32,000 bases of DNA from Roseiflexus castenholzii DSM 13941 (GCF_000017805.1 NC_009767.1:4287184-4319183), one strand, 5' to 3'. Positions 3,203-26,080 are shown, counted from the first letter of the stretch. Notes: generated by a model not told the origin, from the letters alone. Translations and numbers: made by a program.

Positions 3203-3211
3203 GAGGCGGGC

Positions 3212-3949: not shown

Positions 3950-6266
3950 TTGGATGGACCATATCCTGGCGAAGAGTCAGCAGTACGGCGGTGAGACGCT
4001 GGCAGCACACACGTGGGATGTGCTGGTCAAATTGTCCGATCTGTACCGACTGCGCCCACGCCTCGACAATGGTTCGCAACTCTGGCACTGCCTCTACTGG
4101 GCGGCGTTTCTGCACGATTTTGGCAAAGCAGCGCGCGGATTCCAGCAGCGGCTGCGTGGTGGACAAGCCTGGTCCCATCGCCACGAGGTGCTGTCGCTGG
4201 CGTTTGTGGATACCATCGCCGACGGCTTTACCCCGGAGGAGCAACGCTGGTTGGTCGCGGCAATCGTCTCCCATCACCGCGATGAGCCGGAGATTGCGGA
4301 GACCTATCCACCGGGTCTGCGCCGCGATCCGCTGGTTGATCTGTGCAACGAACTCGAACCACAAGTGATCGATCATCTTCAACGCTGGCTGACGGAATGC
4401 GCCAACCCCTGGCGTGAGGCGTTGGGGTTAGCTGAGGTGGTGGGGAAGATTACACCGCAATCGGTGACGGTCAACCCCAAACGGGTACGCTACTGGTTGC
4501 AGGTCTATCACGATTGGGTTGCGGCGAACGATCCTGCAGCGCGGGTACCCGGTATCTTGCTGCGTGGCTTGATCACCACCGCCGATCATATGGCTTCAGC
4601 GCATCTGCATCGTGTGCCACCACCGATCACCGAACCGTGGTCGGCATTGGCCAAACGTCTCTTGTCGCAGGGACAGCAGGTCTACGACCACCAACAGCAA
4701 AGTGGCGAGATGAAAGGACAATCGGCGCTGCTCATGGCCCCAACCGGCAGTGGCAAAACCGAAGCCGCACTCTATTGGGCACTCGGTGATGGCGCCGCAC
4801 CTCCGGCGCGCATCTTTTACACTCTGCCCTATCAGGCGAGCATGAATGCAATGTACGACCGATTGCGGCAGAACTTTGGCGATGAGCTGGTCGGATTGCA
4901 GCATGGCCGGGCAGCGCAGGCGCTCTACGCCCGCTTCCGCGAGGGTGAGGAATGGTCGGCAGCGGCGCGGCGCGTGCAGTGGGAGAAAAACCTGAACATC
5001 CTGCATGCTCGCCCGCTCAAGGTGCTCAGTCCATACCAACTCCTCAAAGCCCTCTTCCAACTGCGTGGGTTTGAAGCCATGCTCACCGATTATGCGCAGG
5101 CGGCATTTGTGTTTGATGAGATTCACGCTTACGAACCGGAACGTCTAGCCCTGATTACCGGTCTGATGCGGTATCTACGCGAGCAGTTCGCTGCACGTTT
5201 CTTTGTGATGTCGGCTACATTTCCCCAGCTTATTCGCAAACAGTTAACGGTGGCACTTGGTGACGTTCCGGTGATCCAGGCTTGCCCGGAGATCTTTACC
5301 CACTTTCGTCGTCACCAACTATTCCTATGCGACGGCGAATTGATCGACCCGACTACCATCGCCGCGATTGTTGCTGAAGTGCAGGCGGGCCGGCAAGTGT
5401 TGGTCTGCGCGAATACGGTGGCGCGAGCGCAAGCGCTGCGCGATCAGCTCGCGCAAGCCGGTCTCACCGATGATCAACTACTCTTGATCCATAGCCGCTT
5501 CACCTATGGCGACCGCAGCCGCATCGAGCAAGACATCCGCGCGCGCTGCGGTAGTAATGTCACGCCACGACCGCCGCTGGCGCTCGTGGCGACGCAGGTG
5601 GTTGAGGTGAGTCTCGACATCGATCTCGACACGATCTACACCGATCCGGCGCCGCTTGAAGCGCTTCTGCAACGCTTCGGGCGGGTCAACCGCAAAGGCG
5701 CAAAAGGCATCTGCCCGGTCTACGTTTTTCGCCAGCCCACCGACGGGCAGGGCGTCTACGGGCGCGACCGCGACCCGCAACAGGCGGGCCACATCGTGCG
5801 CGTTACGCTTGCCGAACTGGAACAGCATAACCGTGAAATCATCGACGAAGCGGCAATCAACCAGTGGCTCGACAACATCTATGCCGATCCCGTGCTCAGC
5901 CAGCAATGGACGGAAGCCTACCAACGGATGGCGCAGCAGGTCGAGCTGATCATCAACGGGTTACGCCCATTCCAGAGCGACGAACAGCGTGAAGATGATT
6001 TCGAGCAAATGTTTGATGGGGTTGAGGTCGTGCCACAGTGTTTTGAACAGGCATACGTTGATTGTCTGGTTCAGGAACGGTTTATTGAAGCGAATGACTA
6101 CCTGGTCAGCATCAGCAAACAGCGTTTTGCCATCCTGCGCAATCAGGGCAAAATCAGACCGGCAGAAGAAGTCGGGCAGCGACGAGTGTGGGTAGCGCTC
6201 CTTCCCTACGACTCGCGCAATGGTTTGTCATTTGGCGACACGACGTATGATCCAGACTGGAGTTGA
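3924..6266 (+). CDS. cas3: Cas3 HD nuclease / SF2 helicase fusion (about 780 aa)
   Basis: HD domain motifs LHDFGK, SHRHE and SHHRD. Walker A APTGSGKTEA and DEIH box (VFDEIHAY). The likely start is ATG 3924 (MMKPSPW), which overlaps the cas5 end by 26 nt. The track start at 3828 lies inside cas5 and is unlikely. Confidence 0.9.
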   Translation: MMKPSPWPDWMDHILAKSQQYGGETLAAHTWDVLVKLSDLYRLRPRLDNGSQLWHCLYWAAFLHDFGKAARGFQQRLRGGQAWSHRHEVLSLAFVDTIADGFTPEEQRWLVAAIVSHHRDEPEIAETYPPGLRRDPLVDLCNELEPQVIDHLQRWLTECANPWREALGLAEVVGKITPQSVTVNPKRVRYWLQVYHDWVAANDPAARVPGILLRGLITTADHMASAHLHRVPPPITEPWSALAKRLLSQGQQVYDHQQQSGEMKGQSALLMAPTGSGKTEAALYWALGDGAAPPARIFYTLPYQASMNAMYDRLRQNFGDELVGLQHGRAAQALYARFREGEEWSAAARRVQWEKNLNILHARPLKVLSPYQLLKALFQLRGFEAMLTDYAQAAFVFDEIHAYEPERLALITGLMRYLREQFAARFFVMSATFPQLIRKQLTVALGDVPVIQACPEIFTHFRRHQLFLCDGELIDPTTIAAIVAEVQAGRQVLVCANTVARAQALRDQLAQAGLTDDQLLLIHSRFTYGDRSRIEQDIRARCGSNVTPRPPLALVATQVVEVSLDIDLDTIYTDPAPLEALLQRFGRVNRKGAKGICPVYVFRQPTDGQGVYGRDRDPQQAGHIVRVTLAELEQHNREIIDEAAINQWLDNIYADPVLSQQWTEAYQRMAQQVELIINGLRPFQSDEQREDDFEQMFDGVEVVPQCFEQAYVDCLVQERFIEANDYLVSISKQRFAILRNQGKIRPAEEVGQRRVWVALLPYDSRNGLSFGDTTYDPDWS

Positions 6267-6269
6267 AGT

Positions 6270-7229
6270 GTGATGCTCACAGTTCACCACCTCCTCCTGG
6301 CCTTCACCGCCGTCACGCCCCTCGAACTCGACGACAACGCCGGGGCTGCCGTGCGCGGCGCGATCGTCAATGCGCTCTTGAACCGCTTCTGCGCCAACAA
6401 AGCAGCGCCGACCTGCGCCGACTGCCCGCTTCTCACAGTCTGCCCGGTGGCGGCGCTCGTCGCGCCCATGCGCGACGCCGGTGAAACCGGCGGCGAGCAA
6501 CGCCCGCGCCCCTACGTCACCCGCCCGCCACAACCGCGCCGCTATGCGCCGGGGGAAACCCTGACCTTCGGGCTGGGGCTGTTCGGGCACGCCGCCGATC
6601 TCTTTCCCTACCTCGTCATGGCGGCGCAGGGGATCGAAGTTCAGGGGCTGGGACGGCGCCTCCAGGAAAACAATGGACGGCGCGGCGCGGTGCGCCTCGC
6701 CGCCATCGATGCTTTCAATCCCCTGACCGGCGCAAAGCAGTCACTCTTCCGCGCCGGTCAACGCCAGGTTCAGGCGCCCGGCATTCCTATCGGTCCGGCA
6801 GAAGTCGCAGCGTTCGCCGCCAATCTCCCGACCGACCGCCTGACCCTGCGGTTCCTGTCGCCCATGCGCCTGATCGACGGCGGTCGCCTGGTGAAACGTC
6901 CGGCGCTGCGTCCGCTCGTTCAACGGCTCGGCATTCGCCTGACCGACCTCTCCACTGCGTATGGCGATGGTCCGCTCCCTGTGGCCGACGCGCGTTCCCT
7001 CTTACCATTGGCGGAAGGCGCCACCCTTGCGCGCGACACAACCAGATGGATCGATGTGATCAGCCATTCACGACGCACCGGTGAACGCACCCCGATCGGC
7101 GGCTTCATCGGCGACGCCGTTTTCACCGGCGACCTTGGACCCCTGCGTGAACTCCTCGTCTGGGGCAGCCTAGTCCACGTCGGCAAAAACGCCGTCAAAG
7201 GCGACGGATGGTACAACGTTGAATCTTGA
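6270..7229 (+). CDS. cas6: Cas6-family RAMP endoribonuclease (319 aa; GTG 6270 or ATG 6273)
   Basis: The C-terminal glycine-rich loop VHVGKNAVKGDGWYNV is typical of Cas6. There is an N-terminal CxxC...C cluster (CADCPLLTVCP). It starts 4 nt after the cas3 stop, and no other Cas6 candidate exists in the locus. Confidence 0.65.
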   Translation: MMLTVHHLLLAFTAVTPLELDDNAGAAVRGAIVNALLNRFCANKAAPTCADCPLLTVCPVAALVAPMRDAGETGGEQRPRPYVTRPPQPRRYAPGETLTFGLGLFGHAADLFPYLVMAAQGIEVQGLGRRLQENNGRRGAVRLAAIDAFNPLTGAKQSLFRAGQRQVQAPGIPIGPAEVAAFAANLPTDRLTLRFLSPMRLIDGGRLVKRPALRPLVQRLGIRLTDLSTAYGDGPLPVADARSLLPLAEGATLARDTTRWIDVISHSRRTGERTPIGGFIGDAVFTGDLGPLRELLVWGSLVHVGKNAVKGDGWYNVES

Positions 7230-7571: not shown

Positions 7572-7680
7572 GGAACCGCGTCTCGCTGGCGCAAGCGAAA
7601 GGCGCAAATTCCGGGTGATAGGTGTATCGTGCGACGTACATGAGGAACCGCGTCTCGCTGGCGCAAGCGAAAGGCGCAAA
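7572..7680 (+). repeat. CRISPR-like mini-array: two identical 37-nt repeats (GGAACCGCGTCTCGCTGGCGCAAGCGAAAGGCGCAAA) flanking one unique 35-nt spacer
   Basis: Copies at 7572-7608 and 7644-7680 are 37/37 identical. The intervening 35 nt (7609-7643, TTCCGGGTGATAGGTGTATCGTGCGACGTACATGA) and both outer flanks are unrelated. The geometry matches the main array (37-nt repeat, 34-37-nt spacers). Each repeat has a 5-bp stem with a 6-nt loop (TCGCT-GGCGCA-AGCGA) followed by an A-rich tail. Confidence 0.6.
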
Positions 7681-7777
7681 GGCTTCGGCTGAACAGGCAA
7701 ACCCGAAAGGTTTGTGGAGTGCGTCTCTCCGTGCTCCCTGTGTCTCTGTGGTGTACACACGGTTGCAGGTGTTACGT

Positions 7778-7805
7778 GGTTCTCGGTTCTCAGTTCTCAA
7801 TTCTC
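7778..7805 (+). repeat. Four tandem heptamers GGTTCTC GGTTCTC AGTTCTC AATTCTC directly upstream of the cas1 RBS
   Basis: Read directly. It ends 3 nt before AAGGAG (7809-7814). Confidence 0.7.
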
Positions 7806-7821
7806 ACAAAGGAGACAGTTC

Positions 7822-8838
7822 ATGCACCTCATCGTAGACCAATTCGGCGTATTTATCTCAAAGCACCAGGGGCGCATTCGCGTCATGAAAGAGAAGGAAC
7901 GTCTATCGGAAGTGCCGATCATGCACCTGGAACAAATCCTCATTTGCAGCGACGGTGTCGGTCTCAGCAGCGACGTGGTGCGTGCCTGCGCCGAAGAAGG
8001 GATTCCGATCCACTTCCTCAACAGCGCCAACGGCGGCGACTATGGCACGTTCGTGCATAGCGGCATCACCGGCATGGCGCTCACCCGCCGTGCTCAATTG
8101 CGAGCCGGTGACGACGAGCGCGGATTGCGTCTGGCGCAGGCGTTCGCCAGCGGCAAAATCCAGAGCCAGGCGAACATGCTGCGCTACGCCGCCAAAAATC
8201 GCAAAGAGAACGACCCGGACCTGCACAACGACCTGATGCGCACCGCCACCGAAATCCTCGACGCCCTCCCGCCGCTGCGCGCCGTGCGCGGCGTCCTTAC
8301 CGACGAAACCCGCGCTGCGCTGATGGGCTTCGAGGGAATGGCCGGCGCGCGCTACTGGACAGCCGTGGCGCGCATCATTCCCGACGACCTCGGTTGGCCC
8401 GGACGCGAAACGCGCGGTGCGCGCGACCGCTTCAATCAGGCGCTCAACTACGGCTACGGCGTTCTCCAGTCTCAGGTGCGCACTGCCCTGATCCTTGCCG
8501 GGTTGGACCCCAATGCCGGGTTCCTCCACGCCGACCGACCGGGCAAGCCGAGCCTGACCCTTGACCTGATCGAAGAGTTTCGCCAGGCAGTCGTCGACCG
8601 CACCCTCATCGGGCTGGTCAACCGCCAGTTCGAGATTGTCCAGCGCGACGACGGACTGCTCGACGAGGACACCCGCAAACGCATCGCCGAGAAAATCCTC
8701 GAACGCCTGAACAGCACTGAGCTCTACGAAGGCAAGCGTCAGCCGCTCCGTCACATTCTCCAATGCCAGGCGCGCCACATCGCCACCTTTGTGCGCGGCG
8801 AACGTCCCACCTATGAACCGTTTGTGATGGGGTGGTGA
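7822..8838 (+). CDS. cas1: Cas1 integrase (338 aa)
   Basis: RBS AAGGAG at 7809-7814, then ATG 7822 (MHLIVDQFGVFISKH). Canonical Cas1 motifs NQALNYGYGVL and GFLHADRPGKPSLTLDLIEEFR. The track start at 7714 is unlikely because it lacks an RBS and gives a Cys-rich junk N-terminus. Confidence 0.92.
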   Translation: MHLIVDQFGVFISKHQGRIRVMKEKERLSEVPIMHLEQILICSDGVGLSSDVVRACAEEGIPIHFLNSANGGDYGTFVHSGITGMALTRRAQLRAGDDERGLRLAQAFASGKIQSQANMLRYAAKNRKENDPDLHNDLMRTATEILDALPPLRAVRGVLTDETRAALMGFEGMAGARYWTAVARIIPDDLGWPGRETRGARDRFNQALNYGYGVLQSQVRTALILAGLDPNAGFLHADRPGKPSLTLDLIEEFRQAVVDRTLIGLVNRQFEIVQRDDGLLDEDTRKRIAEKILERLNSTELYEGKRQPLRHILQCQARHIATFVRGERPTYEPFVMGW

Positions 8839-8917
8839 CGCTATGCGCGTGCGTGGCCGGACGGTGAGCATCCAGAGGGAGTCAGGTAACGACCGTTTGT
8901 GATGGGGTGGTGACGCT

Positions 8918-9175
8918 ATGCGCTGCCTGCTCATCTACGACATTCCCAACGACCGCGCGCGACAGAAGATTGCCGACGCCTGCCTTGACTACGGCTTACA
9001 GCGTATTCAGTACAGCGCCTTCAGCGGCAATCTCAGCCGCACCCATCAGCGCGAATTAATGACCGAAGTGAAGCGGCGATTGGGCAAAAACGCCGGTAAC
9101 ATCCAACTCTTCACCTTCCCGGACGACATCTGGAACGCGCGGCGTGTTATCAACCAGGGAGAAAGCCATGAGTGA
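8918..9175 (+). CDS. cas2: Cas2 (85 aa)
   Basis: MRCLLIYDIPNDRARQKIADACLDYGLQRIQYSAFSG is a typical Cas2 N-terminal ferredoxin fold with the catalytic Asp in YDI. Size and position next to cas1 agree. Confidence 0.9.
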   Translation: MRCLLIYDIPNDRARQKIADACLDYGLQRIQYSAFSGNLSRTHQRELMTEVKRRLGKNAGNIQLFTFPDDIWNARRVINQGESHE

Positions 9176-9764
9176 AAGCACTTTCGAGGTGACCGATCTG
9201 CGACAGTGGGCATACTGCCCGCGCGTCGTCTACTACCAGCACTGCATGCCCGACATCCGACCCATGACAAAGCTGATGATCGCCGGCATGGAAGAACACC
9301 GGGCGGAAAGTGGGCGCGAGGAGCGGCGTTCGCTGCGCACCTACGGATTGAAACAGGGCGAACGCTTCTTCGATGTACCACTGCGCTCAGAGACACTCGG
9401 GTTACGCGGGCGCGTCGATCTGGTCATCGCCCTGCCCGACCGACAGCACGCAACCGAAGTCATCGTCGTAGAATACAAAAGCACCGAAGGCAAAGCCGGT
9501 CCGCACGTCAAACTCCAACTCACCGCGTATGCGCTCATGATCGAAGAAGCGTGGGGCGTGCCGGTCAAACGAGGATTCATCTACCACATGCCGGAGCACA
9601 AAGCCGAAGCAGTGACAATCAGCGCCGCGCTGCGCGAGCGTGTGTACACAACCGTTGCCACGATCCGCGAAACAGTCGATCACGAACGCATGCCTGCGCC
9701 GCCCGCCTCACGCCGACAGTGCGCCGTCTGTGAATTTCGCCGGTTCTGTAACGATGTCGTCTGA
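9168..9764 (+). CDS. cas4: Cas4 RecB-like nuclease with Fe-S cysteines (198 aa)
   Basis: N-terminal WAYCPR Cys, RecB motif GRVDLVI...VVEYKS, QLTAYALM motif and C-terminal CAVCEFRRFC. The likely start is ATG 9168 (MSESTF), which overlaps the cas2 end by 8 nt. Confidence 0.88.
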   Translation: MSESTFEVTDLRQWAYCPRVVYYQHCMPDIRPMTKLMIAGMEEHRAESGREERRSLRTYGLKQGERFFDVPLRSETLGLRGRVDLVIALPDRQHATEVIVVEYKSTEGKAGPHVKLQLTAYALMIEEAWGVPVKRGFIYHMPEHKAEAVTISAALRERVYTTVATIRETVDHERMPAPPASRRQCAVCEFRRFCNDVV

Positions 9765-10129
9765 AGAGGTAAGGGGTCAGGGGTTAAGGATGAGGAGCAA
9801 CACCTTTACAAGTGTAAGAATAAAAGACATTGTAACCCTGGCTCCTGACCCCCGCCTTTCAGCGACGCTCTCGCAACTCGCCGGTCACGTGTTCAAAACG
9901 CCGTCTTCTGTAATCGGCGTGTCAAGGATTTTTGCAGGCATTTTCCGCTTCAGAAAGAGAAGAATGATGCTTCGCAACTTGACGCGGTTTTCAGACAAGA
10001 ATCGAGTTGCGAAACGCACCCATTCATGCTATGATGTTAGCGTTGCAACGACGCAGCAGGAAGGCTCAGGAGCGTCGAAGATCTATCACTACGACAATCC
10101 ACACGCACGAGAGAGGTGATGGAAGTGGG
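9765..10129 (+). promoter_or_regulatory. CRISPR leader
   Basis: A 365-nt non-coding, lower-GC stretch between the cas4 stop and the first perfect repeat. It contains an inverted repeat GGGGTCAGG (9773-9781) / CCTGACCCC (9844-9852) around an AT-rich core, and a promoter-like element. Confidence 0.75.
10007..10035 (+). promoter_or_regulatory. Putative sigma70-type array promoter: TTGCGA - 17 nt - TATGAT
   Basis: -35 at 10007-10012, -10 at 10030-10035, with 17-nt spacing. It lies about 95 nt upstream of repeat 1 and is oriented toward the array. Confidence 0.45.
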
Positions 10130-13100
10130 CTTTCCGATTTTTCGGCTCGCAGAAGAGCACTGAAATAATGATTGAACCAATCCGCCGCCTGGGCCAGCCA
10201 GTTTCCGATTTTTCGGCTCGCAGAAGAGCACTGAAATATATTTCGAATTCGACTAACCCGTACCAGTGTCCAGCTTTCCGATTTTTCGGCTCGCAGAAGA
10301 GCACTGAAATTCAACATATCTGAGACCGGGGGGGAATATTGCAGGTTTCCGATTTTTCGGCTCGCAGAAGAGCACTGAAATGCCATAGGTACTCCTCTGA
10401 CCTATGACCGGCGTCACTTTCCGATTTTTCGGCTCGCAGAAGAGCACTGAAATGGACGCAAGCGGTCTTATCCAGGCGCTTGCAGATTCTTTCCGATTTT
10501 TCGGCTCGCAGAAGAGCACTGAAATGAGCACTGGGCGGATAACCCGGCGCTGCGTCCTGCGCTTTCCGATTTTTCGGCTCGCAGAAGAGCACTGAAATTA
10601 CGTGATCAGGTTGTGTGTTAATTATTACTGGATTAACTTTCCGATTTTTCGGCTCGCAGAAGAGCACTGAAATTTCGCGACCGCGCCGACCGGACGCCAG
10701 CGCACCGCTTTTCCGATTTTTCGGCTCGCAGAAGAGCACTGAAATCGCGACGGACCGCGCGGCGCGCGGCGAACACGGCATCTTTCCGATTTTTCGGCTC
10801 GCAGAAGAGCACTGAAATTTCTCAAGGGCAACCAGTTTGTCAACCATATCGCGGTTTCCGATTTTTCGGCTCGCAGAAGAGCACTGAAATTGTCCGGGTT
10901 GACGCCTTCCTCACTGAAATGCAGGTTTCCGATTTTTCGGCTCGCAGAAGAGCACTGAAATCGGACAGCACCGCAGGCAGCAAGACGCCCAGCAGGCTTT
11001 CCGATTTTTCGGCTCGCAGAAGAGCACTGAAATCAGATCAACGAGTGGATATTGGTACTGTATATAACCGCTTTCCGATTTTTCGGCTCGCAGAAGAGCA
11101 CTGAAATTTGCGCTTGGCAAGAGCCTCTACACGCACGGCGCACTTTCCGATTTTTCGGCTCGCAGAAGAGCACTGAAATTTGCGTTCCCACAAGGTCGCC
11201 GTCGAAGACGGCGACTTTCCGATTTTTCGGCTCGCAGAAGAGCACTGAAATGCCAGCGCCGTGTCGCCCGGCTCGGGGGTTATCGAACTTTCCGATTTTT
11301 CGGCTCGCAGAAGAGCACTGAAATGGGGTTGGGGTTAAGAGGGGCCCACGACAGGACGCGATTTCCGATTTTTCGGCTCGCAGAAGAGCACTGAAATCTT
11401 GATTTGCCGGGCCCGGAAAGCGGGGCGTATGCACTTTCCGATTTTTCGGCTCGCAGAAGAGCACTGAAATCGCAGAGCACTGGGCGGACAACCCGGCGCT
11501 GAGGCTTTCCGATTTTTCGGCTCGCAGAAGAGCACTGAAATCGCGAAAGGGGGGGGGATTGGGGCAGTATGGTTAACTTTCCGATTTTTCGGCTCGCAGA
11601 AGAGCACTGAAATTCGACGCGGAGACGGTCGAGGAGGCGGTCGAGGAGGCTTTCCGATTTTTCGGCTCGCAGAAGAGCACTGAAATACCGCTCCCTCGCT
11701 TGCGTAGACGAACAACGTGCGCCTTTCCGATTTTTCGGCTCGCAGAAGAGCACTGAAATAACGCCGCGCCGCGCTCCTCATCAACAGCGCGCTCGCTTTC
11801 CGATTTTTCGGCTCGCAGAAGAGCACTGAAATTCAATGCTTACATCGATCTGGAACCGACCCGGATAACTTTCCGATTTTTCGGCTCGCAGAAGAGCACT
11901 GAAATATAGCGATGAAGGGGGGGATAACCTTCCCTTCTTTTCTTTCCGATTTTTCGGCTCGCAGAAGAGCACTGAAATCCCGTCCGCACGAGCGACATCG
12001 CGCGCGACGTGATCTTTCCGATTTTTCGGCTCGCAGAAGAGCACTGAAATCGTGGTGCCACGGCGCAGTCAACGACATGCGTCGACTTTCCGATTTTTCG
12101 GCTCGCAGAAGAGCACTGAAATCGCTCGGCGTCGACGTGCTGCTCAATTACGCCGGCTTTCCGATTTTTCGGCTCGCAGAAGAGCACTGAAATTCGACAA
12201 CACCGCGTCGCAGCAGTTCTTCCGCTACCTTTCCGATTTTTCGGCTCGCAGAAGAGCACTGAAATAAATTCGGCATCACGAACCTCCTCATCAACAAAAG
12301 ATTTCCGATTTTTCGGCTCGCAGAAGAGCACTGAAATGCGCGACTGACAGCAGCCCCATCGCCACGTTCACCGTTTCCGATTTTTCGGCTCGCAGAAGAG
12401 CACTGAAATTCCGGGTTCGTCCTTCTGGGCGCGTGGCGCGGCGCTCTTTCCGATTTTTCGGCTCGCAGAAGAGCACTGAAATCCCCGCTAGTACTTTAGT
12501 ACCACACACACACCACCACCTTTCCGATTTTTCGGCTCGCAGAAGAGCACTGAAATTCCTCGCTCTACGACGGCGAGGACGGGCTGGCAGCCTTTCCGAT
12601 TTTTCGGCTCGCAGAAGAGCACTGAAATATGTGAATATGCCCGCCGATTGACCGGTAAGGATAGTTTCCGATTTTTCGGCTCGCAGAAGAGCACTGAAAT
12701 CTTTTGCGGCGCGCCAGCGCACCCAGTCGCCGAACGTTTCCGATTTTTCGGCTCGCAGAAGAGCACTGAAATCGTCCAAACGTTCGTATCCTCAACCCAA
12801 TCGCCGCCGCTTTCCGATTTTTCGGCTCGCAGAAGAGCACTGAAATCCAAAAGACGCCGGGCGTGTTCTACGCCCGCGCCGGCTTTCCGATTTTTCGGCT
12901 CGCAGAAGAGCACTGAAATTCCGCGGCGGCGGCGGCGATGCTCATCACGCGATGTTTCCGATTTTTCGGCTCGCAGAAGAGCACTGAAATGATGTCATAA
13001 ACGAGCACGAATTTCTCGACACGCGGGTCTTTCCGATTTTTCGGCTCGCAGAAGAGCACTGAAATCGACTGCGGTCAACAGCGGCTCATCGCGCATTCGG

Positions 13101-16100
13101 CTTTCCGATTTTTCGGCTCGCAGAAGAGCACTGAAATATCTGCTCATCGACCTGGGCGAGGTGACGCTGCCGCCTTTCCGATTTTTCGGCTCGCAGAAGA
13201 GCACTGAAATCCTCGTCGTTGTAAACAGAAACCGAGACCAACGTATTTCCGATTTTTCGGCTCGCAGAAGAGCACTGAAATGTGTTCGACGCCGCGCGCG
13301 GGCTGTCGGGCTTTGATTTCCGATTTTTCGGCTCGCAGAAGAGCACTGAAATCCTGAACCTCGCCAGGAATATCGACGCCGCCAAACTCTTTCCGATTTT
13401 TCGGCTCGCAGAAGAGCACTGAAATCAGACATGTGCAGCGTCAATGGAGTGACGCACGCACTTTCCGATTTTTCGGCTCGCAGAAGAGCACTGAAATTGC
13501 TGCATTTGTAAAAAACGGGGAGTTTAGTCCTGATTTCCGATTTTTCGGCTCGCAGAAGAGCACTGAAATAAAAAGGCCTCTGGGAGCCATTATAAGGCGC
13601 GAAAATTTCCGATTTTTCGGCTCGCAGAAGAGCACTGAAATCCTTATGCTCGACATCGTAAGCGCGCCGCTGCCGACTTTCCGATTTTTCGGCTCGCAGA
13701 AGAGCACTGAAATCAAAACCTGCAACGGCGAACAACATCGCATCCATCACTTTCCGATTTTTCGGCTCGCAGAAGAGCACTGAAATCATCATGGATGAGT
13801 CGACGATGAGTCGCACGATAAGCTTTCCGATTTTTCGGCTCGCAGAAGAGCACTGAAATGCGTCAGCGCGGTGAGCGCAGGCAGCGCCAGGCTGCCGTTT
13901 CCGATTTTTCGGCTCGCAGAAGAGCACTGAAATGCTGGTATCGTCACGGTGCTAAACCGGCGAGGATTGGCTTTCCGATTTTTCGGCTCGCAGAAGAGCA
14001 CTGAAATTGTCTACACGACAGGTACTCGGGAGTTTATCGAGGCCTTTCCGATTTTTCGGCTCGCAGAAGAGCACTGAAATGGCTCGATGTACTTGCCAGC
14101 GGGCGACGATCAAATTGGCTTTCCGATTTTTCGGCTCGCAGAAGAGCACTGAAATCTGATCTCATTCCTTGTCAGACCAACAACACTGCGTTTTCCGATT
14201 TTTCGGCTCGCAGAAGAGCACTGAAATGTCTGGACGATCGATGCGGGAATGTTAGCAAGCACGTTTCCGATTTTTCGGCTCGCAGAAGAGCACTGAAATT
14301 CGGTCTTTGTGGCGGTCAAGCGGGCGATTGGACGCTTTCCGATTTTTCGGCTCGCAGAAGAGCACTGAAATCTGTCACTGATGAGACGCTCATCAGTAAC
14401 CGCAGCTTTCCGATTTTTCGGCTCGCAGAAGAGCACTGAAATGATGACATGGAACGGCGTTCGCGGTTGGAGCGCCTGTTTCCGATTTTTCGGCTCGCAG
14501 AAGAGCACTGAAATTGCGTGCATGAAGGCGTCTTGGCCTGAAGACGCTCACTTTCCGATTTTTCGGCTCGCAGAAGAGCACTGAAATAAACTCGCGCGCG
14601 CGGGCGAGGAGGGGGTCGTCGGATTTCCGATTTTTCGGCTCGCAGAAGAGCACTGAAATTGAAGGTATACGTAACGGTATAAACTGGTGACGGACTTTCC
14701 GATTTTTCGGCTCGCAGAAGAGCACTGAAATGATGGAAGATCGAGGGAATCGAATTCGCGTCGCCGGCTTTCCGATTTTTCGGCTCGCAGAAGAGCACTG
14801 AAATCACGCATTCACACGCGTCCGCCTACAGGCATATACACCTTTCCGATTTTTCGGCTCGCAGAAGAGCACTGAAATTCGCGCGCGCGCGAGTACTGCT
14901 TCCACCGCCGGACCCTTTCCGATTTTTCGGCTCGCAGAAGAGCACTGAAATCGTTCGGCGCGTGATGAGTTGATTACGCGCTCAATTTCCGATTTTTCGG
15001 CTCGCAGAAGAGCACTGAAATGCAGGGAGGGCATGAGATCGGCAAGCGCATCGTGCGCTTTCCGATTTTTCGGCTCGCAGAAGAGCACTGAAATTTCAGA
15101 GCCTTGTCCAATTCCAAGGCGACTTCCGCTTTCCGATTTTTCGGCTCGCAGAAGAGCACTGAAATGCTGGTCGAACTTTGTGGGTAGGAGGCACTAAACC
15201 GCTTTCCGATTTTTCGGCTCGCAGAAGAGCACTGAAATCACCTTTACTGAATAATACATGTTGACAAGAATGTCATCTTTCCGATTTTTCGGCTCGCAGA
15301 AGAGCACTGAAATTTGACGTGCGTGTCCGGCGTCTCACGCGACGCTGCTTTTCCGATTTTTCGGCTCGCAGAAGAGCACTGAAATTCGACCGCGCGCGCG
15401 CGGCGGTTAAGCACAAATGCTTTCCGATTTTTCGGCTCGCAGAAGAGCACTGAAATTCAGGACGGTCACCAGCGCTGGAGCATCGACGTAGCTTTCCGAT
15501 TTTTCGGCTCGCAGAAGAGCACTGAAATCAGATTACACTAATGTACAATTTACATCTATCCTTCTTTCCGATTTTTCGGCTCGCAGAAGAGCACTGAAAT
15601 CCATATCTCTTATATTCCTGACGTGATAATCATACCCTTTCCGATTTTTCGGCTCGCAGAAGAGCACTGAAATACCAACGACGCCGAAGCGCCGGCGGTT
15701 ATGGTGCGCTTTCCGATTTTTCGGCTCGCAGAAGAGCACTGAAATCTTATGCCTTATGAGGAGGACAAAAATGTGACTCTTCTTTCCGATTTTTCGGCTC
15801 GCAGAAGAGCACTGAAATGGCGCAATACACGGCGCCTTGGTAATTGTTGAAAAACTTTCCGATTTTTCGGCTCGCAGAAGAGCACTGAAATTAAGTACGG
15901 TCGTCAATAGTACTTCCGGCGTGCCAATTTCCGATTTTTCGGCTCGCAGAAGAGCACTGAAATCAAAAGTACAAAACTTCTTCTCACCGAAAAAATCGAA
16001 CTTTCCGATTTTTCGGCTCGCAGAAGAGCACTGAAATGCTGGGTGATGCGGGGCAAGCTGTTGAATCGTTGGTTTCCGATTTTTCGGCTCGCAGAAGAGC

Positions 16101-19100
16101 ACTGAAATCCGTCGTGGTGCGGGTACAGTCCAAGCAATCCGTCTTTCCGATTTTTCGGCTCGCAGAAGAGCACTGAAATGCATTAAGCGCTCTATTTTTG
16201 CATCGAAAATAGTCGCTTTCCGATTTTTCGGCTCGCAGAAGAGCACTGAAATCTTACAGTCAATTGACAATATTACAGGCGATTGGTCTTTCCGATTTTT
16301 CGGCTCGCAGAAGAGCACTGAAATTCGGGATCGTATGCGTGGTACTACAAAGGGCCCGCGCTTTCCGATTTTTCGGCTCGCAGAAGAGCACTGAAATTCT
16401 TACCCCGCCAATAATGCAGCGCCGGACCATCCGCTTTCCGATTTTTCGGCTCGCAGAAGAGCACTGAAATTTCTAGTTTGATGATGAGCGACTGCGCGTC
16501 TTAGCTTTCCGATTTTTCGGCTCGCAGAAGAGCACTGAAATGTATATGACTTGTACAGGCGAACAGTGTACACCTCATTTCCGATTTTTCGGCTCGCAGA
16601 AGAGCACTGAAATCCAATCGTATATATCTTATATTCCTAACGTGATAATCTTTCCGATTTTTCGGCTCGCAGAAGAGCACTGAAATCTCGCGACTTGACG
16701 CGCGACCTGATGCTCTGGGGTTTCCGATTTTTCGGCTCGCAGAAGAGCACTGAAATAGAAGTTTTGTTTTGGCGGGAAAACTGTGGTTTTACAATCTTTC
16801 CGATTTTTCGGCTCGCAGAAGAGCACTGAAATCGGCAGGAACAGCGCGCCAGCCTTCGAGCTCCGTGTATTTCCGATTTTTCGGCTCGCAGAAGAGCACT
16901 GAAATTGCCCAAAAAAAACCGGCGACACGCTTCCATTGTGTTTCCGATTTTTCGGCTCGCAGAAGAGCACTGAAATTGGTGCAGTCTCTGGACTCCATCC
17001 AGGCGCTGCGTGGTTTCCGATTTTTCGGCTCGCAGAAGAGCACTGAAATCGATAATACGCCTGATAATACGTTGTTGCATGCGATTTCCGATTTTTCGGC
17101 TCGCAGAAGAGCACTGAAATCTTCCGCGGTTTTGCGTACTTCCGCGTACTCCGGCGTTTTCCGATTTTTCGGCTCACAGAAGAGCACTGAAATTCGGCAG
17201 ATCCATGTCTTGCACGTTGACCGACCAGTTTCCGATTTTTCGGCTCGCAGAAGAGCACTGAAATCTTCCGACGCCGACGCCGGAGTACGCAGAAATTCGC
17301 TTTCCGATTTTTCGGCTCGCAGAAGAGCACTGAAATATGTGACGGTCTGCGATATGTTTCAGGGCAACATACTTTCCGATTTTTCGGCTCGCAGAAGAGC
17401 ACTGAAATGTGCCATTCCGCACGAAGGAAGGAATACCGCTGCGATTTCCGATTTTTCGGCTCGCAGAAGAGCACTGAAATCCGATCCGAGCGTGCTCTAT
17501 TTACCGTGTTTTCGAGTTTCCGATTTTTCGGCTCGCAGAAGAGCACTGAAATATTCTGATTTCGACGCTCTCTTGTGGCTTCAACCACTTTCCGATTTTT
17601 CGGCTCGCAGAAGAGCACTGAAATCCTCTCACCACCATTTTCGCTATGTCGGCATCGGCTTTCCGATTTTTCGGCTCGCAGAAGAGCACTGAAATGCATT
17701 CCCTGATGGAGGACGGCATGGATTGGATAATTTCCGATTTTTCGGCTCGCAGAAGAGCACTGAAATCGAGCGCCGACGGGCGCTGGTGGTCAGCGCGCTG
17801 CTTTCCGATTTTTCGGCTCGCAGAAGAGCACTGAAATTGAACAAAACTTTGGTCGATACCGGCCACTTTTTTCTTTCCGATTTTTCGGCTCGCAGAAGAG
17901 CACTGAAATAAAGTTCAATACCTGGAAAAACTTTACCTCGCAAATTTCCGATTTTTCGGCTCGCAGAAGAGCACTGAAATATTCGTAGTCCGGTTATCTG
18001 CTGGTCCTTATCGAACCTTTCCGATTTTTCGGCTCGCAGAAGAGCACTGAAATACAATCTCGACGTAGCACAGTCGCCAACCCGGGTTATTTCCGATTTT
18101 TCGGCTCGCAGAAGAGCACTGAAATCCCGAAGTGGTATGGACAGACCCCGACATATGCTCGTTTCCGATTTTTCGGCTCGCAGAAGAGCACTGAAATCTT
18201 GTACCCGCTGACAGTATTCCCCCCCCGTTTCACTTTCCGATTTTTCGGCTCGCAGAAGAGCACTGAAATGTCGCTCCCTCTCCAACGCCGCCGGATTGAC
18301 CTAAATTTCCGATTTTTCGGCTCGCAGAAGAGCACTGAAATTGAAACGAATGTCGCTTTCGCCGCGAATGTCTCATCCTTTCCGATTTTTCGGCTCGCAG
18401 AAGAGCACTGAAATCCGGTCAAGCGCACCGTCAGGCAGCACCAAGCCTGACTTTCCGATTTTTCGGCTCGCAGAAGAGCACTGAAATGCGATCCAGAGCG
18501 TTCTCCAACTCGTAAGGTTGTAAGTTTCCGATTTTTCGGCTCGCAGAAGAGCACTGAAATCGCTTTTCGCCGCGTTCAGCGCGCTGCGCACGGCGTTTTC
18601 CGATTTTTCGGCTCGCAGAAGAGCACTGAAATCGACTGTCATATGGGGATGCCGGTACATCGAGTGACTTTCCGATTTTTCGGCTCGCAGAAGAGCACTG
18701 AAATTCGAGCATCAGCACTGGCGGGGTTGTTGGACACGGCAAGCTTTCCGATTTTTCGGCTCGCAGAAGAGCACTGAAATCCCTGCCGCCAAAACGCTTG
18801 CGCGGCAGGCTGGAACTTTCCGATTTTTCGGCTCGCAGAAGAGCACTGAAATTTGACTATCTTGTTGCAACGTATCCTTATGGGGAATTTCCGATTTTTC
18901 GGCTCGCAGAAGAGCACTGAAATTTTCCCTTTCGAAATTGCTCGATAGAGAAGAATCGCACTTTCCGATTTTTCGGCTCGCAGAAGAGCACTGAAATTGC
19001 TATCGAGCATCTCTCCAGAACGTCGTCCGGTATCACTTTCCGATTTTTCGGCTCGCAGAAGAGCACTGAAATACAAGCGCAGGAAGTCAATCCATTGACC

Positions 19101-22100
19101 GCCGCCCTTTCCGATTTTTCGGCTCGCAGAAGAGCACTGAAATATGAACTCACCCGCACCGGACACCCAATCGCGGAGCCTTTCCGATTTTTCGGCTCGC
19201 AGAAGAGCACTGAAATTCCTGAAGGAAAGAAGCATTCTGTACGACCTAGTTGTTTCCGATTTTTCGGCTCGCAGAAGAGCACTGAAATGCCGAGGGCGTC
19301 GGCGTCGAGGATTGCGCGGAGACCTTTCCGATTTTTCGGCTCGCAGAAGAGCACTGAAATATCAGTACTGTGGCCGGTTTCCTGGCGCTAGCGCCATTTC
19401 CGATTTTTCGGCTCGCAGAAGAGCACTGAAATTCTTCGTGGGCGACGCAAAGGCGAGCAAACTCACGCGTTTCCGATTTTTCGGCTCGCAGAAGAGCACT
19501 GAAATTGTTACACTTCATACTCGGAGACTGGCTTCCGCCACCTTTCCGATTTTTCGGCTCGCAGAAGAGCACTGAAATAGACGACAACCGCGCCGCGCAG
19601 CGCCTGGACGGATTTCCGATTTTTCGGCTCGCAGAAGAGCACTGAAATCCATGCCTGTTGCTACTACCATTGCCCTATTAGCGTTTCCGATTTTTCGGCT
19701 CGCAGAAGAGCACTGAAATTTCGACGACCTGCGGCGGCATCTTCTCCAGCGCCTGTTTCCGATTTTTCGGCTCGCAGAAGAGCACTGAAATCCGTCGGAA
19801 GTTGCGCGAAGGGAAGTCGGCGCGATGATCTTTCCGATTTTTCGGCTCGCAGAAGAGCACTGAAATCTCGCAATCGCGCTCCACGCCGCAGACGCAGCGT
19901 TTTTTCCGATTTTTCGGCTCGCAGAAGAGCACTGAAATCCGATTGTGCGGCAGTTCCCGACGCCGCCATCGCTGCGCTTTCCGATTTTTCGGCTCGCAGA
20001 AGAGCACTGAAATTCATCAACCATCACAGACGCTCTCACCATCCGATACCTTTCCGATTTTTCGGCTCGCAGAAGAGCACTGAAATGTCGAACATGTGCC
20101 GCGTCCCGTCATCATCGAAATTTTCCGATTTTTCGGCTCGCAGAAGAGCACTGAAATGCGACGCATGCGACGCTTGCGTGAGAAACGTGACATCCTTTCC
20201 GATTTTTCGGCTCGCAGAAGAGCACTGAAATTTCGTCAGCGCCTTCATCAACCATCACAGACGCTCTCTTTCCGATTTTTCGGCTCGCAGAAGAGCACTG
20301 AAATGCAAGCGTCGCGCACAAAACAGTTCGTAATCCGAACGTTTCCGATTTTTCGGCTCGCAGAAGAGCACTGAAATGCGCCGGTCGGGTGCTCGATATT
20401 GCCTTGTTGCGCCGACTTTCCGATTTTTCGGCTCGCAGAAGAGCACTGAAATTTCGGCATCTGTGAGGAGGGGGCGCGAAAGGAGGCTTTTTCCGATTTT
20501 TCGGCTCGCAGAAGAGCACTGAAATCCTTCCCGGCTTCCCGGCGCCGGTTCCGGCTGCCGGTTTTCCGATTTTTCGGCTCGCAGAAGAGCACTGAAATTA
20601 TTGCAATCGCATCGGTCGCGTCGTCGGCGATTGCTTTCCGATTTTTCGGCTCGCAGAAGAGCACTGAAATTCGATCAGTTTTGTCAAGACTTCTCGATAT
20701 GCCGGATTTCCGATTTTTCGGCTCGCAGAAGAGCACTGAAATTCCGTTTTTCGTCTTGTCGTCTCATGTTGTCACCTTTCCGATTTTTCGGCTCGCAGAA
20801 GAGCACTGAAATGCACATCGCGGATAAGCGCGTAGAGCGTTATATGCATTTCCGATTTTTCGGCTCGCAGAAGAGCACTGAAATTGGGTGTTGTATGCTT
20901 GACTATGCGCGCGTTCGATGCTTTCCGATTTTTCGGCTCGCAGAAGAGCACTGAAATCCGGTCGGTCTTGTCGCGCGGCGCTGCGCATCGTATTTCCGAT
21001 TTTTCGGCTCGCAGAAGAGCACTGAAATCGCAGCGCCTGGATGTCATCCAGCGAGCGCAACACTTTCCGATTTTTCGGCTCGCAGAAGAGCACTGAAATC
21101 TCAACCGCGCGCCGGAGATCGCTGAACAACTCCTCTTTCCGATTTTTCGGCTCGCAGAAGAGCACTGAAATTGCTCAATGCTGCTGGCGCCATTGCGAGG
21201 ATGATTGCTTTCCGATTTTTCGGCTCGCAGAAGAGCACTGAAATTGAGATCGCGCGTCGGATTGGATGCTCGCATATCACTTTCCGATTTTTCGGCTCGC
21301 AGAAGAGCACTGAAATCCGGTGTGCTATGAGCGTGATGTTCCGGGCGACGACTTTCCGATTTTTCGGCTCGCAGAAGAGCACTGAAATACAAACGCAGGA
21401 AGTCAATCCATTGACCACCGCCGATTTCCGATTTTTCGGCTCGCAGAAGAGCACTGAAATCGCAGCGTGACGGCGTGGGGGGTCAGATTTACCAGTTTCC
21501 GATTTTTCGGCTCGCAGAAGAGCACTGAAATTGGTCGTCTCCGTCGCCGCTCCCGCCCTCCCCGGACTTTCCGATTTTTCGGCTCGCAGAAGAGCACTGA
21601 AATCTACGAGTCAAATAATCGACACAATCACGCCGCGTCATCTTTCCGATTTTTCGGCTCGCAGAAGAGCACTGAAATGCGTATGACTGGCGCCTGAACG
21701 CGAGTAGTTGATTCCTTTCCGATTTTTCGGCTCGCAGAAGAGCACTGAAATTGTCCAGCCATGCCAGCCTTCTTTCCACCCAGTCTCTTTCCGATTTTTC
21801 GGCTCGCAGAAGAGCACTGAAATATGAAGGTAAGTACGGCGGAGCGTATGGATTGACTTTTCCGATTTTTCGGCTCGCAGAAGAGCACTGAAATCGCGCT
21901 CGATAACCACGCGCGCGCGCGCGTCGTCTTTCCGATTTTTCGGCTCGCAGAAGAGCACTGAAATGTCATACTCATCAACGCTGATCCCCATCAACACGTT
22001 GCTTTCCGATTTTTCGGCTCGCAGAAGAGCACTGAAATCCTCTCGCTCACGTCGAGCGCGATACATGTCGAATCTTTCCGATTTTTCGGCTCGCAGAAGA

Positions 22101-25100
22101 GCACTGAAATTCGTAATTGATCGCTTCGCTCAGCATCCGATAGTGATTTTCCGATTTTTCGGCTCGCAGAAGAGCACTGAAATGCGTAGTAACACGGTAG
22201 CAGCGTACTGTGTTCATCGTCTTTCCGATTTTTCGGCTCGCAGAAGAGCACTGAAATCTGTACGTGGTGTCAGCAACAAGACAGTGCCACTTTCTTTCCG
22301 ATTTTTCGGCTCGCAGAAGAGCACTGAAATATGTCGACAAAAATCAGCGCATCAACCTGTATTACTTTCCGATTTTTCGGCTCGCAGAAGAGCACTGAAA
22401 TTTTTCGAGCGAAACAAGCTTATCAACCATATCGCGGCTTTCCGATTTTTCGGCTCGCAGAAGAGCACTGAAATTTTTGACCGAGCAAAAAGTTTACAGA
22501 GTCAATTAACTTTCCGATTTTTCGGCTCGCAGAAGAGCACTGAAATCCGAGAATCAGGGCGTTATTGTAATTCAATCCCGACTTTCCGATTTTTCGGCTC
22601 GCAGAAGAGCACTGAAATATGAACTCACCCGCACCGGACACCCAATCGCGGAGCCTTTCCGATTTTTCGGCTCGCAGAAGAGCACTGAAATCTTTACCAC
22701 AAGACATAACACAAATATCCTTTGTAGCTTTCCGATTTTTCGGCTCGCAGAAGAGCACTGAAATTGTTAAACAACGTGCATTGGTTTAGAAGGACTGGTA
22801 AACTTTCCGATTTTTCGGCTCGCAGAAGAGCACTGAAATTGTACAAACCTGGCAATCGGTGTAAACGGGTTGAATTTCCGATTTTTCGGCTCGCAGAAGA
22901 GCACTGAAATGATTGTCTTGCGTGTCGCTCCACGAGACCTGACTCGCTTTCCGATTTTTCGGCTCGCAGAAGAGCACTGAAATTGCAGGTTTCGGGAAAT
23001 TATCAGGAGGAACGGTAGCCTTTCCGATTTTTCGGCTCGCAGAAGAGCACTGAAATCGGAAGGGATGTCATCTTCTCCTTGGTCGATAGAATTTCCGATT
23101 TTTCGGCTCGCAGAAGAGCACTGAAATATCTCATCGCCAATCGATCGCTCTCGCCGCAAGTGGCTTTCCGATTTTTCGGCTCGCAGAAGAGCACTGAAAT
23201 ACGGTTCGGGTTACAACAAGCGCCCCGGCGAGTTTGCTTTCCGATTTTTCGGCTCGCAGAAGAGCACTGAAATGGCGTTACGCGCCGCCGAGCGTTGCGC
23301 GCCGCGCACTCTTTCCGATTTTTCGGCTCGCAGAAGAGCACTGAAATCTTCAGATCGAGACGCCTCCAAAAGTTTTTTCTTTCTTTCCGATTTTTCGGCT
23401 CGCAGAAGAGCACTGAAATCAAGATTGTCGCCAATTCGCCTGTCTGCTCTGTGTGTTTCCGATTTTTCGGCTCGCAGAAGAGCACTGAAATCATGGACAA
23501 CCACGCGCCAACCCCGATCGGTGGTCGTCTTTCCGATTTTTCGGCTCGCAGAAGAGCACTGAAATCCGTACTTACCTTCATTGGTGTACGGCGGCGAGAT
23601 GCTTTCCGATTTTTCGGCTCGCAGAAGAGCACTGAAATTCTGTCCGAGACGGTTCACAATCGGTTCGATTTTGCCTTTCCGATTTTTCGGCTCGCAGAAG
23701 AGCACTGAAATCTAAGAGCATACGAAAAGAAGTTACTGCTATAAAGATTTCCGATTTTTCGGCTCGCAGAAGAGCACTGAAATTGAAACTCAAGGGTGGG
23801 TCGCACCGATGTTTCCTGCTTTCCGATTTTTCGGCTCGCAGAAGAGCACTGAAATTCCCTTTTTCCTTGATCCAAACCTCGATGTCCGCTTTCCGATTTT
23901 TCGGCTCGCAGAAGAGCACTGAAATACCCTAAGATTTTCTTCTTGTTGTTTTACGACAACATTTCCGATTTTTCGGCTCGCAGAAGAGCACTGAAATAAT
24001 ACTATTTGAGCGTAGCAATGCGCATGCTTGCACCTTTCCGATTTTTCGGCTCGCAGAAGAGCACTGAAATACGTCATGGCGCGCCGCCAAAAAGCCGCGC
24101 TAACGCTTTCCGATTTTTCGGCTCGCAGAAGAGCACTGAAATAGGTCGAGCGCGAGTTGCCTCACGTCCTCAAGTGATTTCCGATTTTTCGGCTCGCAGA
24201 AGAGCACTGAAATTTCCGCCCGCGCTGGCGCGCCACGCGCGGGCGACGGCCTTTCCGATTTTTCGGCTCGCAGAAGAGCACTGAAATCGGTGCTGTTGTA
24301 GCGTCGTGACGGTGCGATTTTCTCGCTTTCCGATTTTTCGGCTCGCAGAAGAGCACTGAAATTTCCCGATTCGTGGTGGTCGTATGGATGGGATGACTTT
24401 CCGATTTTTCGGCTCGCAGAAGAGCACTGAAATCGCGGGGTGCTCAAAAACCACGCAGAGCCCCGCTCGTGTTTCCGATTTTTCGGCTCGCAGAAGAGCA
24501 CTGAAATCACAGGCGGCGGCGGACACAGCGATGCGTTGATGGCGCGTTTCCGATTTTTCGGCTCGCAGAAGAGCACTGAAATCTTTGTGATGCCGGTATC
24601 GGCGCGACAAATGTCTGATTACGTTTCCGATTTTTCGGCTCGCAGAAGAGCACTGAAATACAATTATTCCTTCGGCCGAGCGTTTGCGTTCAAAGTTTCC
24701 GATTTTTCGGCTCGCAGAAGAGCACTGAAATATTTATTGCGCGACGCGCAGACACGCGGCTTGATTGAGTTTCCGATTTTTCGGCTCGCAGAAGAGCACT
24801 GAAATCTCGTAGAGCTCGGAATGACACGCAAGGATTGCATTCAGTTTCCGATTTTTCGGCTCGCAGAAGAGCACTGAAATTATGACGGCGACCCCGGCTG
24901 GTATTGCCGTGACGGTTTCCGATTTTTCGGCTCGCAGAAGAGCACTGAAATATCAGATCGTTGAGCCTGGGGAAGAGTACATCATAGGTTTCCGATTTTT
25001 CGGCTCGCAGAAGAGCACTGAAATATACAGTAGATCATGCTGTCTGCTTGACTATGTGCGGTTTCCGATTTTTCGGCTCGCAGAAGAGCACTGAAATCGG

Positions 25101-25608
25101 CAAAACAGATCGCGCTCGCGCGCCCGCGCGCGGGTTTCCGATTTTTCGGCTCGCAGAAGAGCACTGAAATATTTCAGAGAGGGCCATCCTTTCAATTACG
25201 TCGCCGGGTTTCCGATTTTTCGGCTCGCAGAAGAGCACTGAAATATCAATGACCTATTCTCACCATCTTGCACCCGCGCAAGGTTTCCGATTTTTCGGCT
25301 CGCAGAAGAGCACTGAAATTGGTTGGTCGCTGGGGGTGGAGCGTCACGCCGCCGGTTTCCGATTTTTCGGCTCGCAGAAGAGCACTGAAATGTTATCAGA
25401 GCAGAAGATCGTTTCGCTCATCGATACGTTTCCGATTTTTCGGCTCGCAGAAGAGCACTGAAATTCAGGGAACGCGGGAATAAGCGCGCGACAAGCGCCA
25501 AAGTTTCCGATTTTTCGGCTCGCAGAAGAGCACTGAAATAGGTCGCAATTGGACCGCCGTCAATATGCAAAACGTGTTTCCGATTTTTCGGCTCGCAGAA
25601 GAGCACTG
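10130..25608 (+). CRISPR. CRISPR array: 214 repeats (213 full plus a 33-nt truncated terminal copy) and 213 spacers, unit length 70-77 nt
   Basis: The repeat is NTTTCCGATTTTTCGGCTCGCAGAAGAGCACTGAAAT (37 nt). It has hairpins CCGA-TTTT-TCGG and GCTC-GCAGAA-GAGC followed by an 8-nt ACTGAAAT tail. Positions 2-37 are invariant apart from one SNP at 17176. Orientation is + because the leader and promoter are at the cas end, the truncated and degenerate repeats are at the far end, and the hairpin-plus-8-nt-handle geometry fits. Track peptides such as FRFFGSQKSTEI, SDFSARRRALK and SVLFCEPKNRK are repeat translations. Confidence 0.99.
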
Positions 25609-26051: not shown

Positions 26052-26080
26052 ATTTCCGATTGTTTGGCTCGCAGAAGCAC
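26052..26080 (+). repeat. Degenerate copy of the main CRISPR repeat, 444 nt beyond the truncated terminal repeat
   Basis: ATTTCCGATTgTTTgGCTCGCAGAAG--CAC compared with ATTTCCGATTTTTCGGCTCGCAGAAGAGCAC: two substitutions and a 2-nt deletion, with the 3' handle lost. Confidence 0.7.

Follow-up and report, generated by a model that had tools for sequence, protein, structure and literature searches.

A first-base switch in the repeats of a type I-B CRISPR array of Roseiflexus castenholzii and its possible link to the precision of leader-side integration

A 32,000-nucleotide (nt) stretch of the Roseiflexus castenholzii DSM 13941 chromosome (NC_009767.1:4287184-4319183, hereafter the window) carries on its + strand a complete type I-B CRISPR-Cas locus, as judged from NCBIfam and Pfam matches, whose array, here called A1, comprises 214 repeats (window positions 10130 to 25612). 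The first base of these repeats switches abruptly from G in the 16 units of the trailer end to predominantly C in the 198 units on the leader side, and units that lack one base occur on the leader side of this boundary only. The first-base switch is real and far above chance. It probably reflects a heritable G-to-C change in the repeat that was then leader-proximal, inherited by the units acquired later, after which integration on the leader side would have wobbled by 1 nt.

The first-base switch and the length of the repeat duplication

Repeats were located by a Hamming scan with the 36-nt core TTTCCGATTTTTCGGCTCGCAGAAGAGCACTGAAAT, which starts at position 10131, and repeat position 1 (R1) is defined as the base directly before this core. 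Only 2 of the 214 units deviate from the core, namely the truncated terminal unit 214 and unit 98 (17158-17193), the sole internal repeat variant, with a single G-to-A change at core position 19; since this variant is not found in newer units, it arose after unit 98 had left the leader-proximal position. R1 is G in 16 of 16 units from 199 to 214 (the G block; first G at 24471, last at 25576), whereas in units 1-198 (the C block) it is C in 132 cases, A in 29, G in 26 (13.1%) and T in 11. The switch is abrupt, with C in unit 198 (24397) and G in unit 199, and a run of 16 G at a G background of 13% has a probability of 8e-15. The orientation of the array is fixed by the side on which the cas operon lies, the conserved leader, the truncated far repeat and the hairpin and handle of the repeat: the G block is the trailer end, the cas operon and the conserved leader being on the opposite side and the last repeat being truncated. 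The repeat RNA is predicted to fold into a GCUC-N6-GAGC hairpin followed by the 8-nt handle ACUGAAAU, and A1 thus has the traits that characterize type I-B arrays: direct repeats beside a leader, a 3′ hairpin and a 5′ handle of 8 nt.

The identity of R1 covaries with length. In the G block, the units measure 73.7 nt from start to start, with a core-to-core gap of 37.69 nt. The C-block gaps have a mean of 36.75 nt if their last base is C, and means of 35.6-36.2 nt if it is A, G or T (Mann-Whitney p = 6e-9). Because the non-C gaps are 1 nt shorter, a non-C unit is a unit without one base, not a base-substituted one, and the C block is a mixture of 37-bp and 36-bp repeat duplications. Non-G units are absent from the G block (0/16), whereas non-C units account for 66 of 197 in the C block (Fisher p = 0.0034), along which their rate is even (chi-square p = 0.34; runs test z = 0.84). 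We reproduced all figures of a preliminary description of the array: G at 13%, units of 73.7 nt, about a third of the units slipped and no slipped unit within the G block. An assembly artefact is ruled out by the unique spacers and by the covariation of length with the R1 base, and point mutation of single repeats, which gives no account of the 1-nt length coupling, is ruled out as well.

Several observations bear on whether R1 belongs to the repeat or to the spacer. As a reference for spacer ends, we used 715 unique spacers (mean length 36.26 nt), taken from those arrays of the genus in which R1 is an invariant purine; their last base is A, C, G or T with frequencies of.30,.20,.36 and.14. The non-C endings in A1 (A.44, G.39, T.17) agree with this signature, and the context upstream of the C in C-ending units fits a register in which C is an extra base (summed log-likelihood ratio 11.4, p = 0.007), with a mean context score of 0.087, the control giving 0.090 when this register is true and -0.063 when it is false. 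The last-base signature and the upstream context therefore support a repeat-derived C. In a mixture fit, the fraction of 37-bp duplications is 0.54-0.58 (confidence interval 0.45-0.66); one-nt slips amount to about 44% by modelling, of which 34% are directly visible, the latter figure being a lower limit for 36-bp events. The normal stagger between the two cuts of the integrase is 37 bp, as shown by an off-target integration scar upstream of cas1, where two identical 37-bp copies flank a 35-nt insert.

Protospacer context was read from overlapping spacers of different arrays on one target. The A found at R1 in the sister array A2 (see below) mismatches the target in 3 of 4 such cases and position 1 is therefore repeat-derived in the A1/A2 repeat family. 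The 5′ flanks obtained in the same way are CCG, CCG, CCT, CCT, CCA, CCG and CCA in 7 of 10 contexts, which suggests a CCN-type protospacer-adjacent motif (PAM) at the spacer end opposite position 1. Real protospacers were found neither by megablast of the whole array against phage and plasmid collections nor in IMG/VR scans with the sequence common to overlapping spacers; BLAST of the array against 10 genomes of the genus and 301 of the class returned only partial matches of 21-27 nt, which on inspection were not protospacers, and BLAST of the spacers against 787 spacers of relatives gave one weak match only.

Three other sources of variation at R1 were rejected: (i) two-nt slips, T2 being invariant in 214 of 214 units; (ii) slips in the outward direction, into the leader, G at position -2 not being enriched (.35 versus.36 expected); (iii) a role of base 1 at the RNA level, the base being unpaired and the predicted fold unchanged.

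Precision in other arrays of the genome, the genus and a sister genus

The genome, searched as one contig of 5,723,298 bp, contains three further large arrays, A2, A3 and A4. A2 is flanked by leucine-biosynthesis genes and dinG and has no cas genes in its vicinity; its repeat is near-identical to that of A1, from which it differs at repeat positions 9 and 37. A genome-wide search for cas1 revealed three full-length genes, adjoining A3, A1 and A4, and the cas1 gene of the window is the only one in the genome that lies beside the A1/A2 repeat family. Given the orphan state of A2 and the lack of another matching cas1, we infer that A2 is served in trans by the Cas1-Cas2-Cas4 proteins encoded in the window. 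Isolated slips are found in 0 of 121 A2 units versus 66 of 197 units of the A1 C block (p = 1e-16); A2 is precise up to its newest units, and its spacer length is flat along the array. The G1 form, sought in the other arrays of the genome as the preliminary description had proposed, is used by none of them. In A2, R1 is A throughout except for three consecutive T (units 96-98), after which it is A again, a reversion not accounted for by simple templating on the first repeat. Near the trailer of A2, units 125-127 have two changed 5′ bases (GA, GG, CG). Several A3 and A4 spacers overlap targets of A1 and A2, and the different CRISPR systems of this genome have therefore sampled the same invaders; spacer 198 of A1, at the switch point, has a protospacer in common with A2 spacer 61 (33 of 36 positions identical).

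The same picture holds across the genus, where purine-first arrays display 4 isolated slips in 727 units (0.6%), versus 66 of 197 in the A1 C block (p = 1e-43). The A1 leader is homologous to those of A2 and of the arrays in relatives; all other leaders of the genus end in G, followed by A or G, and A1 alone has C next. Within this repeat family, variants of the repeat are commonly passed on in blocks, as observed in A2 and in three arrays of relatives (L029, L020 and L028), and some of the block switches in relatives alter two repeat positions together (positions 1 and 6 in L028; likewise in L020). The single G-to-C boundary of A1, its truncated terminal repeat and the blocks of L029, L020 and L028 are what polarised, leader-proximal acquisition with templated repeats leaves behind. 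L029 (metagenome contig ERZ1685331 NODE-4259) seems to be the ortholog of A1 in another strain. The terminal repeat of L029 breaks off just where that of A1 does (...GCACTG, then a C-run/G-run palindrome), and its repeats are A-first throughout. Position 37 of L029 varies by blocks, being from trailer to leader C (2 units), T (5) and G (4); placement of the second cut by a ruler could explain such position-37 switches in relatives.

The A1 core, with any first base, was not found in the other genomes or metagenome contigs searched, which brought up no donor for either block. The exact A1 repeat was likewise absent from metagenome contigs and species-representative genomes, and no pyrimidine-first repeat of the Roseiflexus type was found in these two collections.

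Arrays of a sister genus from the same order have homologous leaders and a likewise homologous repeat, CTTTCAACAATTTCGGCTCACGGTAGAGCACTGAAAC, which starts with C, at junctions where the leader ends in TGG, GGT or GGC directly before this base. The very large arrays with this repeat (L072-L077, in genomes G142, G133 and G179) reach about 28 kb.

A candidate mechanism and the alternatives to it

In type I systems that contain Cas4, the two prespacer ends have different targets: on the plus strand, the leader-repeat junction is attacked by the non-PAM 3′ end, and on the minus strand, the repeat-spacer junction by the PAM end (10.1101/2022.05.30.494039). We infer the following history from features observed here: the two blocks, the length difference of 1 nt, the signature in base composition and the precision of arrays that start with a purine and use the same proteins. 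The array, whose transcript runs along the + strand, would grow at its leader end near 10130, every acquisition copying the leader-proximal repeat. With the retained array at unit 198, R1 of this repeat would have changed from G to C, the likely cause being a point mutation, possibly an error of the gap-filling synthesis, which would begin exactly at R1; the 198 later units would all have inherited C1. From then on, the non-PAM 3′ end of the prespacer would alternate between two neighbouring bonds on the leader side. Attack between the leader and C1 would duplicate 37 bp and yield a unit ending in C, while attack between C1 and T2 would duplicate 36 bp, in which case the spacer joins T2 directly, so that C1 is missing from the older copy and replaced by the last base of the spacer. 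A slip of this inward kind would not be inherited, because the new leader-proximal copy would be rebuilt complete from the intact bottom strand. Slips that are not inherited, combined with an R1 change that is, would thus produce a sharp single boundary, a persisting C and slipped units scattered among the others.

The templated inheritance of the switch, as put forward in the preliminary description, is sound and already known biology, given the G block at the trailer and the block inheritance in relatives; note, however, that a replaced leader-proximal segment or a change acting in trans might account for the switch too, since spacer length and first spacer base also shift. The accompanying date of about 198 acquisitions ago leaves spacer loss aside, so that the figure counts retained spacers only. 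As for the suggestion that G1 aids precise recognition of the junction, precision does track a purine at R1 within the genome and the genus, the orphan A2 included, but this is not a general rule. The link between R1 identity and precision is therefore best described as a plausible, lineage-specific hypothesis rather than an established one. In a more specific form, which we put forward tentatively, R1 identity would set the register of leader-side attack in this integrase lineage: the G-to-C change would have turned a site with an error below 1% into a two-state site (37 or 36 bp, in about equal parts), and the sister genus would have co-evolved to use C precisely. A bolder version, based on the C that the target has in 4 of 5 cases, holds that the prespacer's own 3′-terminal C would be favoured through pairing at the junction.

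A number of points weigh against an inherited C that causes the wobble. (i) The G block comprises 16 units only. (ii) In the sister genus, the C at R1 is invariant in 187 of 187 units, and C is therefore not imprecise in itself. (iii) Under the slip model, the C-block spacers measure 35.8-35.9 nt, versus 36.28 nt in A2 and 36.26 nt in the genus (p = 0.001), and are thus about 0.4 nt too short. (iv) Gaps of at least 38 nt number 27 in the C block, versus about 50 expected (p = 1e-4). (v) Among the overlapping-spacer cases, the target has the terminal C of A1 in 4 of 5, where the model expects a fraction of about 0.4, although the difference is not significant (p = 0.10). (vi) In the type I-B system of Haloarcula hispanica, the subject of the one mutational study in this subtype, changes to repeat bases 1-3, to bases 1-5 or to the junction made integration less efficient but no less accurate (Wang et al. 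2016, PMC4872114). (vii) In the type II-A system of Streptococcus thermophilus, G1C left site specificity unchanged (Kim et al. 2019, PMC6895254). In view of the precise sister genus and of these published mutants, C, if causal, would be so only in combination with the integrase and leader of this lineage.

The two published systems resemble A1 in part. H. hispanica is of the same subtype, duplicates the leader-preceded repeat at each acquisition and can give aberrant sizes, 1-3 bp off, which the array records; there, however, it is a changed spacing of mid-repeat motifs that shifts the leader-distal cut, in a 30-nt repeat (PMC4872114), whereas in A1 the mid-repeat is unchanged, base 1 is altered, the leader-side cut wobbles and the repeat is 37 nt long. 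A1 does not have the features of a ruler-type aberrant duplication, for positions 2-37 are constant across the switch, position 37 never varies and it is the leader-side end that is variable. In S. thermophilus, the first repeat base was tested directly, with a moderate loss of specificity for G1T and a reduced efficiency for both G1C and G1T, but the type, the integrase and the leader anchor are different (PMC6895254).

In the type I-E system of Escherichia coli, the last repeat base is derived from the PAM, and "slipped" spacers occur. As in A1, one base at the repeat-spacer border is ambiguous and slipped events place other bases there, but this base is PAM-proximal and PAM-derived in E. 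coli, while that of A1 is PAM-distal and repeat-derived. A PAM-derived terminal base does not fit the A1/A2 family either, as the base lies at the PAM-distal border and, in most of the A2 cases examined, mismatches the target. Integration in E. coli relies on two molecular rulers (Goren et al. 2016, PMC5039180).

The slip model leaves a residue in spacer length. C-block units are on average 0.85 nt shorter than those of A2 (72.42 versus 73.28 nt), about half of which is accounted for by the loss of R1, and the C-block gaps of at least 38 nt end in C in 26 of 27 cases. The first spacer base shifts as well, being A in 7 of 16 G-block spacers versus 31 of 197 in the C block (p = 0.011). The length residue and the first-base shift keep three alternatives alive.

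The first alternative, which we consider unlikely, is recombination or replacement: the G block would be the remnant of an older or different array, to which a leader-proximal part, possibly with the cas genes, the leader and a C-first repeat, was joined within a repeat, the two blocks having been built under different conditions. It would explain why R1, slip rate, spacer length (36.7 versus about 35.9 nt, p ~0.01) and first spacer base change together at the switch, and the two-position block switches of L028 and L020 resemble recombination more than mutation. However, the 36-nt core is identical on either side of the switch, A2 is not the donor of the A1 blocks, given its differences at positions 9 and 37, the searches brought up no other array with the A1 core, and the differences in spacer properties rest on the small G block.

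A change acting in trans, whereby a mutated Cas1, Cas2, Cas4 or host factor gave both imprecision and slightly shorter spacers, the G-to-C change coinciding by chance, has a still smaller chance of being correct. The C-block spacers are indeed about 0.4 nt shorter than those of every other array, and both the precise C-first arrays of the sister genus and the published junction mutants that kept their accuracy (PMC4872114, PMC6895254) fit with it. Yet A2 relies on the same proteins and is precise up to its newest units, with a flat spacer length; moreover, the off-target scar, whose copies are identical, still has the 37-bp stagger, and the onset of slipping coincides exactly with the change at the scissile junction.

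A spacer origin of the variable base, with a repeat that is really 36 nt long and a prespacer end-base preference (by selection or trimming) that moved from G to C, is very improbable: PAM-distal nucleotide bias is known in type I-B (PMC5416893), the terminal C is mostly encoded in the target and counting C as spacer would bring the C-block gaps into line with the spacer lengths of other arrays, but this count conflicts with the context test and with the extra nucleotide of C-ending gaps, G in 16 of 16 units is more than a preference in trimming would yield, A2, built with the same proteins, has an A that is mostly absent from the target, and the scar duplicates 37 bp, not 36.

Locus features, history and significance

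The genes of the locus are arranged in the order cas8b-cas7-cas5-cas3-cas6, followed, after a gap, by cas1-cas2-cas4, which is the gene content of type I-B. The coordinates of these genes, of the parts of A1 and of the other arrays are collected below.

Table 1. Features of the A1 locus (window coordinates) and other arrays of the genome (genome coordinates)
Feature	Position	Strand	Remarks
cas8b1	517-2022	+	NCBIfam; interference block 517..7229 (TIGR01908, TIGR02585, TIGR01895, TIGR01587 and TIGR01596 across its genes)
cas7	2111-3202	+	NCBIfam; interference block
cas5	3212-3949	+	NCBIfam; interference block
cas3	3828-6266	+	NCBIfam; interference block
cas6	6270-7229	+	NCBIfam; interference block; Pfam CRISPR_Cas6 PF10040, E = 7e-12
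Off-target integration scar, 37-35-37	7572..7680	+	two identical 37-bp copies flanking a 35-nt insert
cas1	7714-8838	+	adaptation module 7714..9764, which matches TIGR00287 (261 bits), TIGR01573 and TIGR00372
cas2	8918-9175	+	NCBIfam; adaptation module
cas4	9144-9764	+	NCBIfam; adaptation module
Leader, 365 nt	9765..10129	+	ends ...GGAAGTGGG immediately 5′ of repeat 1
A1 C block, units 1-198	10130..24433	+	repeat (C)TTTCCGATTTTTCGGCTCGCAGAAGAGCACTGAAAT
A1 spacer 198, switch point	24434..24470	+	last spacer attached to a G-first repeat
A1 G block, units 199-213	24471..25575	+	repeat GTTTCCGATTTTTCGGCTCGCAGAAGAGCACTGAAAT; R1 G throughout; mean spacer 36.7 nt
A1 terminal repeat, unit 214	25576..25608	+	G-first; cut after ...GCACTG by a GC-rich palindromic element
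Relic repeat	26052..26080	+	ATTTCCGATTGTTTGGCTCGCAGAAGCAC; 443 nt past the array; A-first; cut off by a GC-rich palindrome
A2	1975555-1984891 (genome)	minus	128 repeats ATTTCCGAATTTTCGGCTCGCAGAAGAGCACTGAAAC; leader homologous to that of A1
A3	2544138-2549947 (genome)		unrelated repeat ending ATTGAAAC; own cas1
A4	~3447500-3453050 (genome)		unrelated repeat ending ATTGAAAC; own cas1

The interval between the end of A1 and the relic repeat is filled with palindromic repeat elements. As both this relic and the L029 repeats are A-first, R1 at this locus may have gone from A to G and then to C.

Two observations concern individual spacers. Spacer 203, in the G block (24806-24844), has an exact 17-mer, GCTCGGAATGACACGCA, in common with a dispersed genomic element present in about 219 copies (consensus ...GCTCGGAATGACACGCATGCGGCATCGTCAATCGTCATTGGTAT) and seems derived from a diverged copy of it. 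Spacers 125 (19144-19180) and 173 (22619-22655), which lie 48 units apart, are identical over 37 nt, either because the same protospacer was acquired twice with the same ends or because of an internal duplication.

In natural arrays, a variant of the leader-proximal repeat passes to all later units, which results in a layering similar to strata, and degenerate trailer repeats occur. Such block-wise variants are usually silent polymorphisms, whereas the layer boundary of A1 coincides with a change in integration precision. How Cas1-Cas2 locates the exact leader-repeat bond is only partly understood, and A1 preserves about 200 integrations that took place naturally at a junction with one altered base, with internal controls in the 16 older units of the same locus and the 121 A2 units built with the same proteins, and with an outgroup that uses C precisely. 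The finding bears on the reading of arrays as chronological records and on the calling of repeat boundaries in CRISPR annotation, in which about one third of the A1 units would be given a wrong spacer end. If the proposed reading is true, A1 would record about 200 trials that a junction mutant has undergone in nature, with a wild-type control in the same genome.

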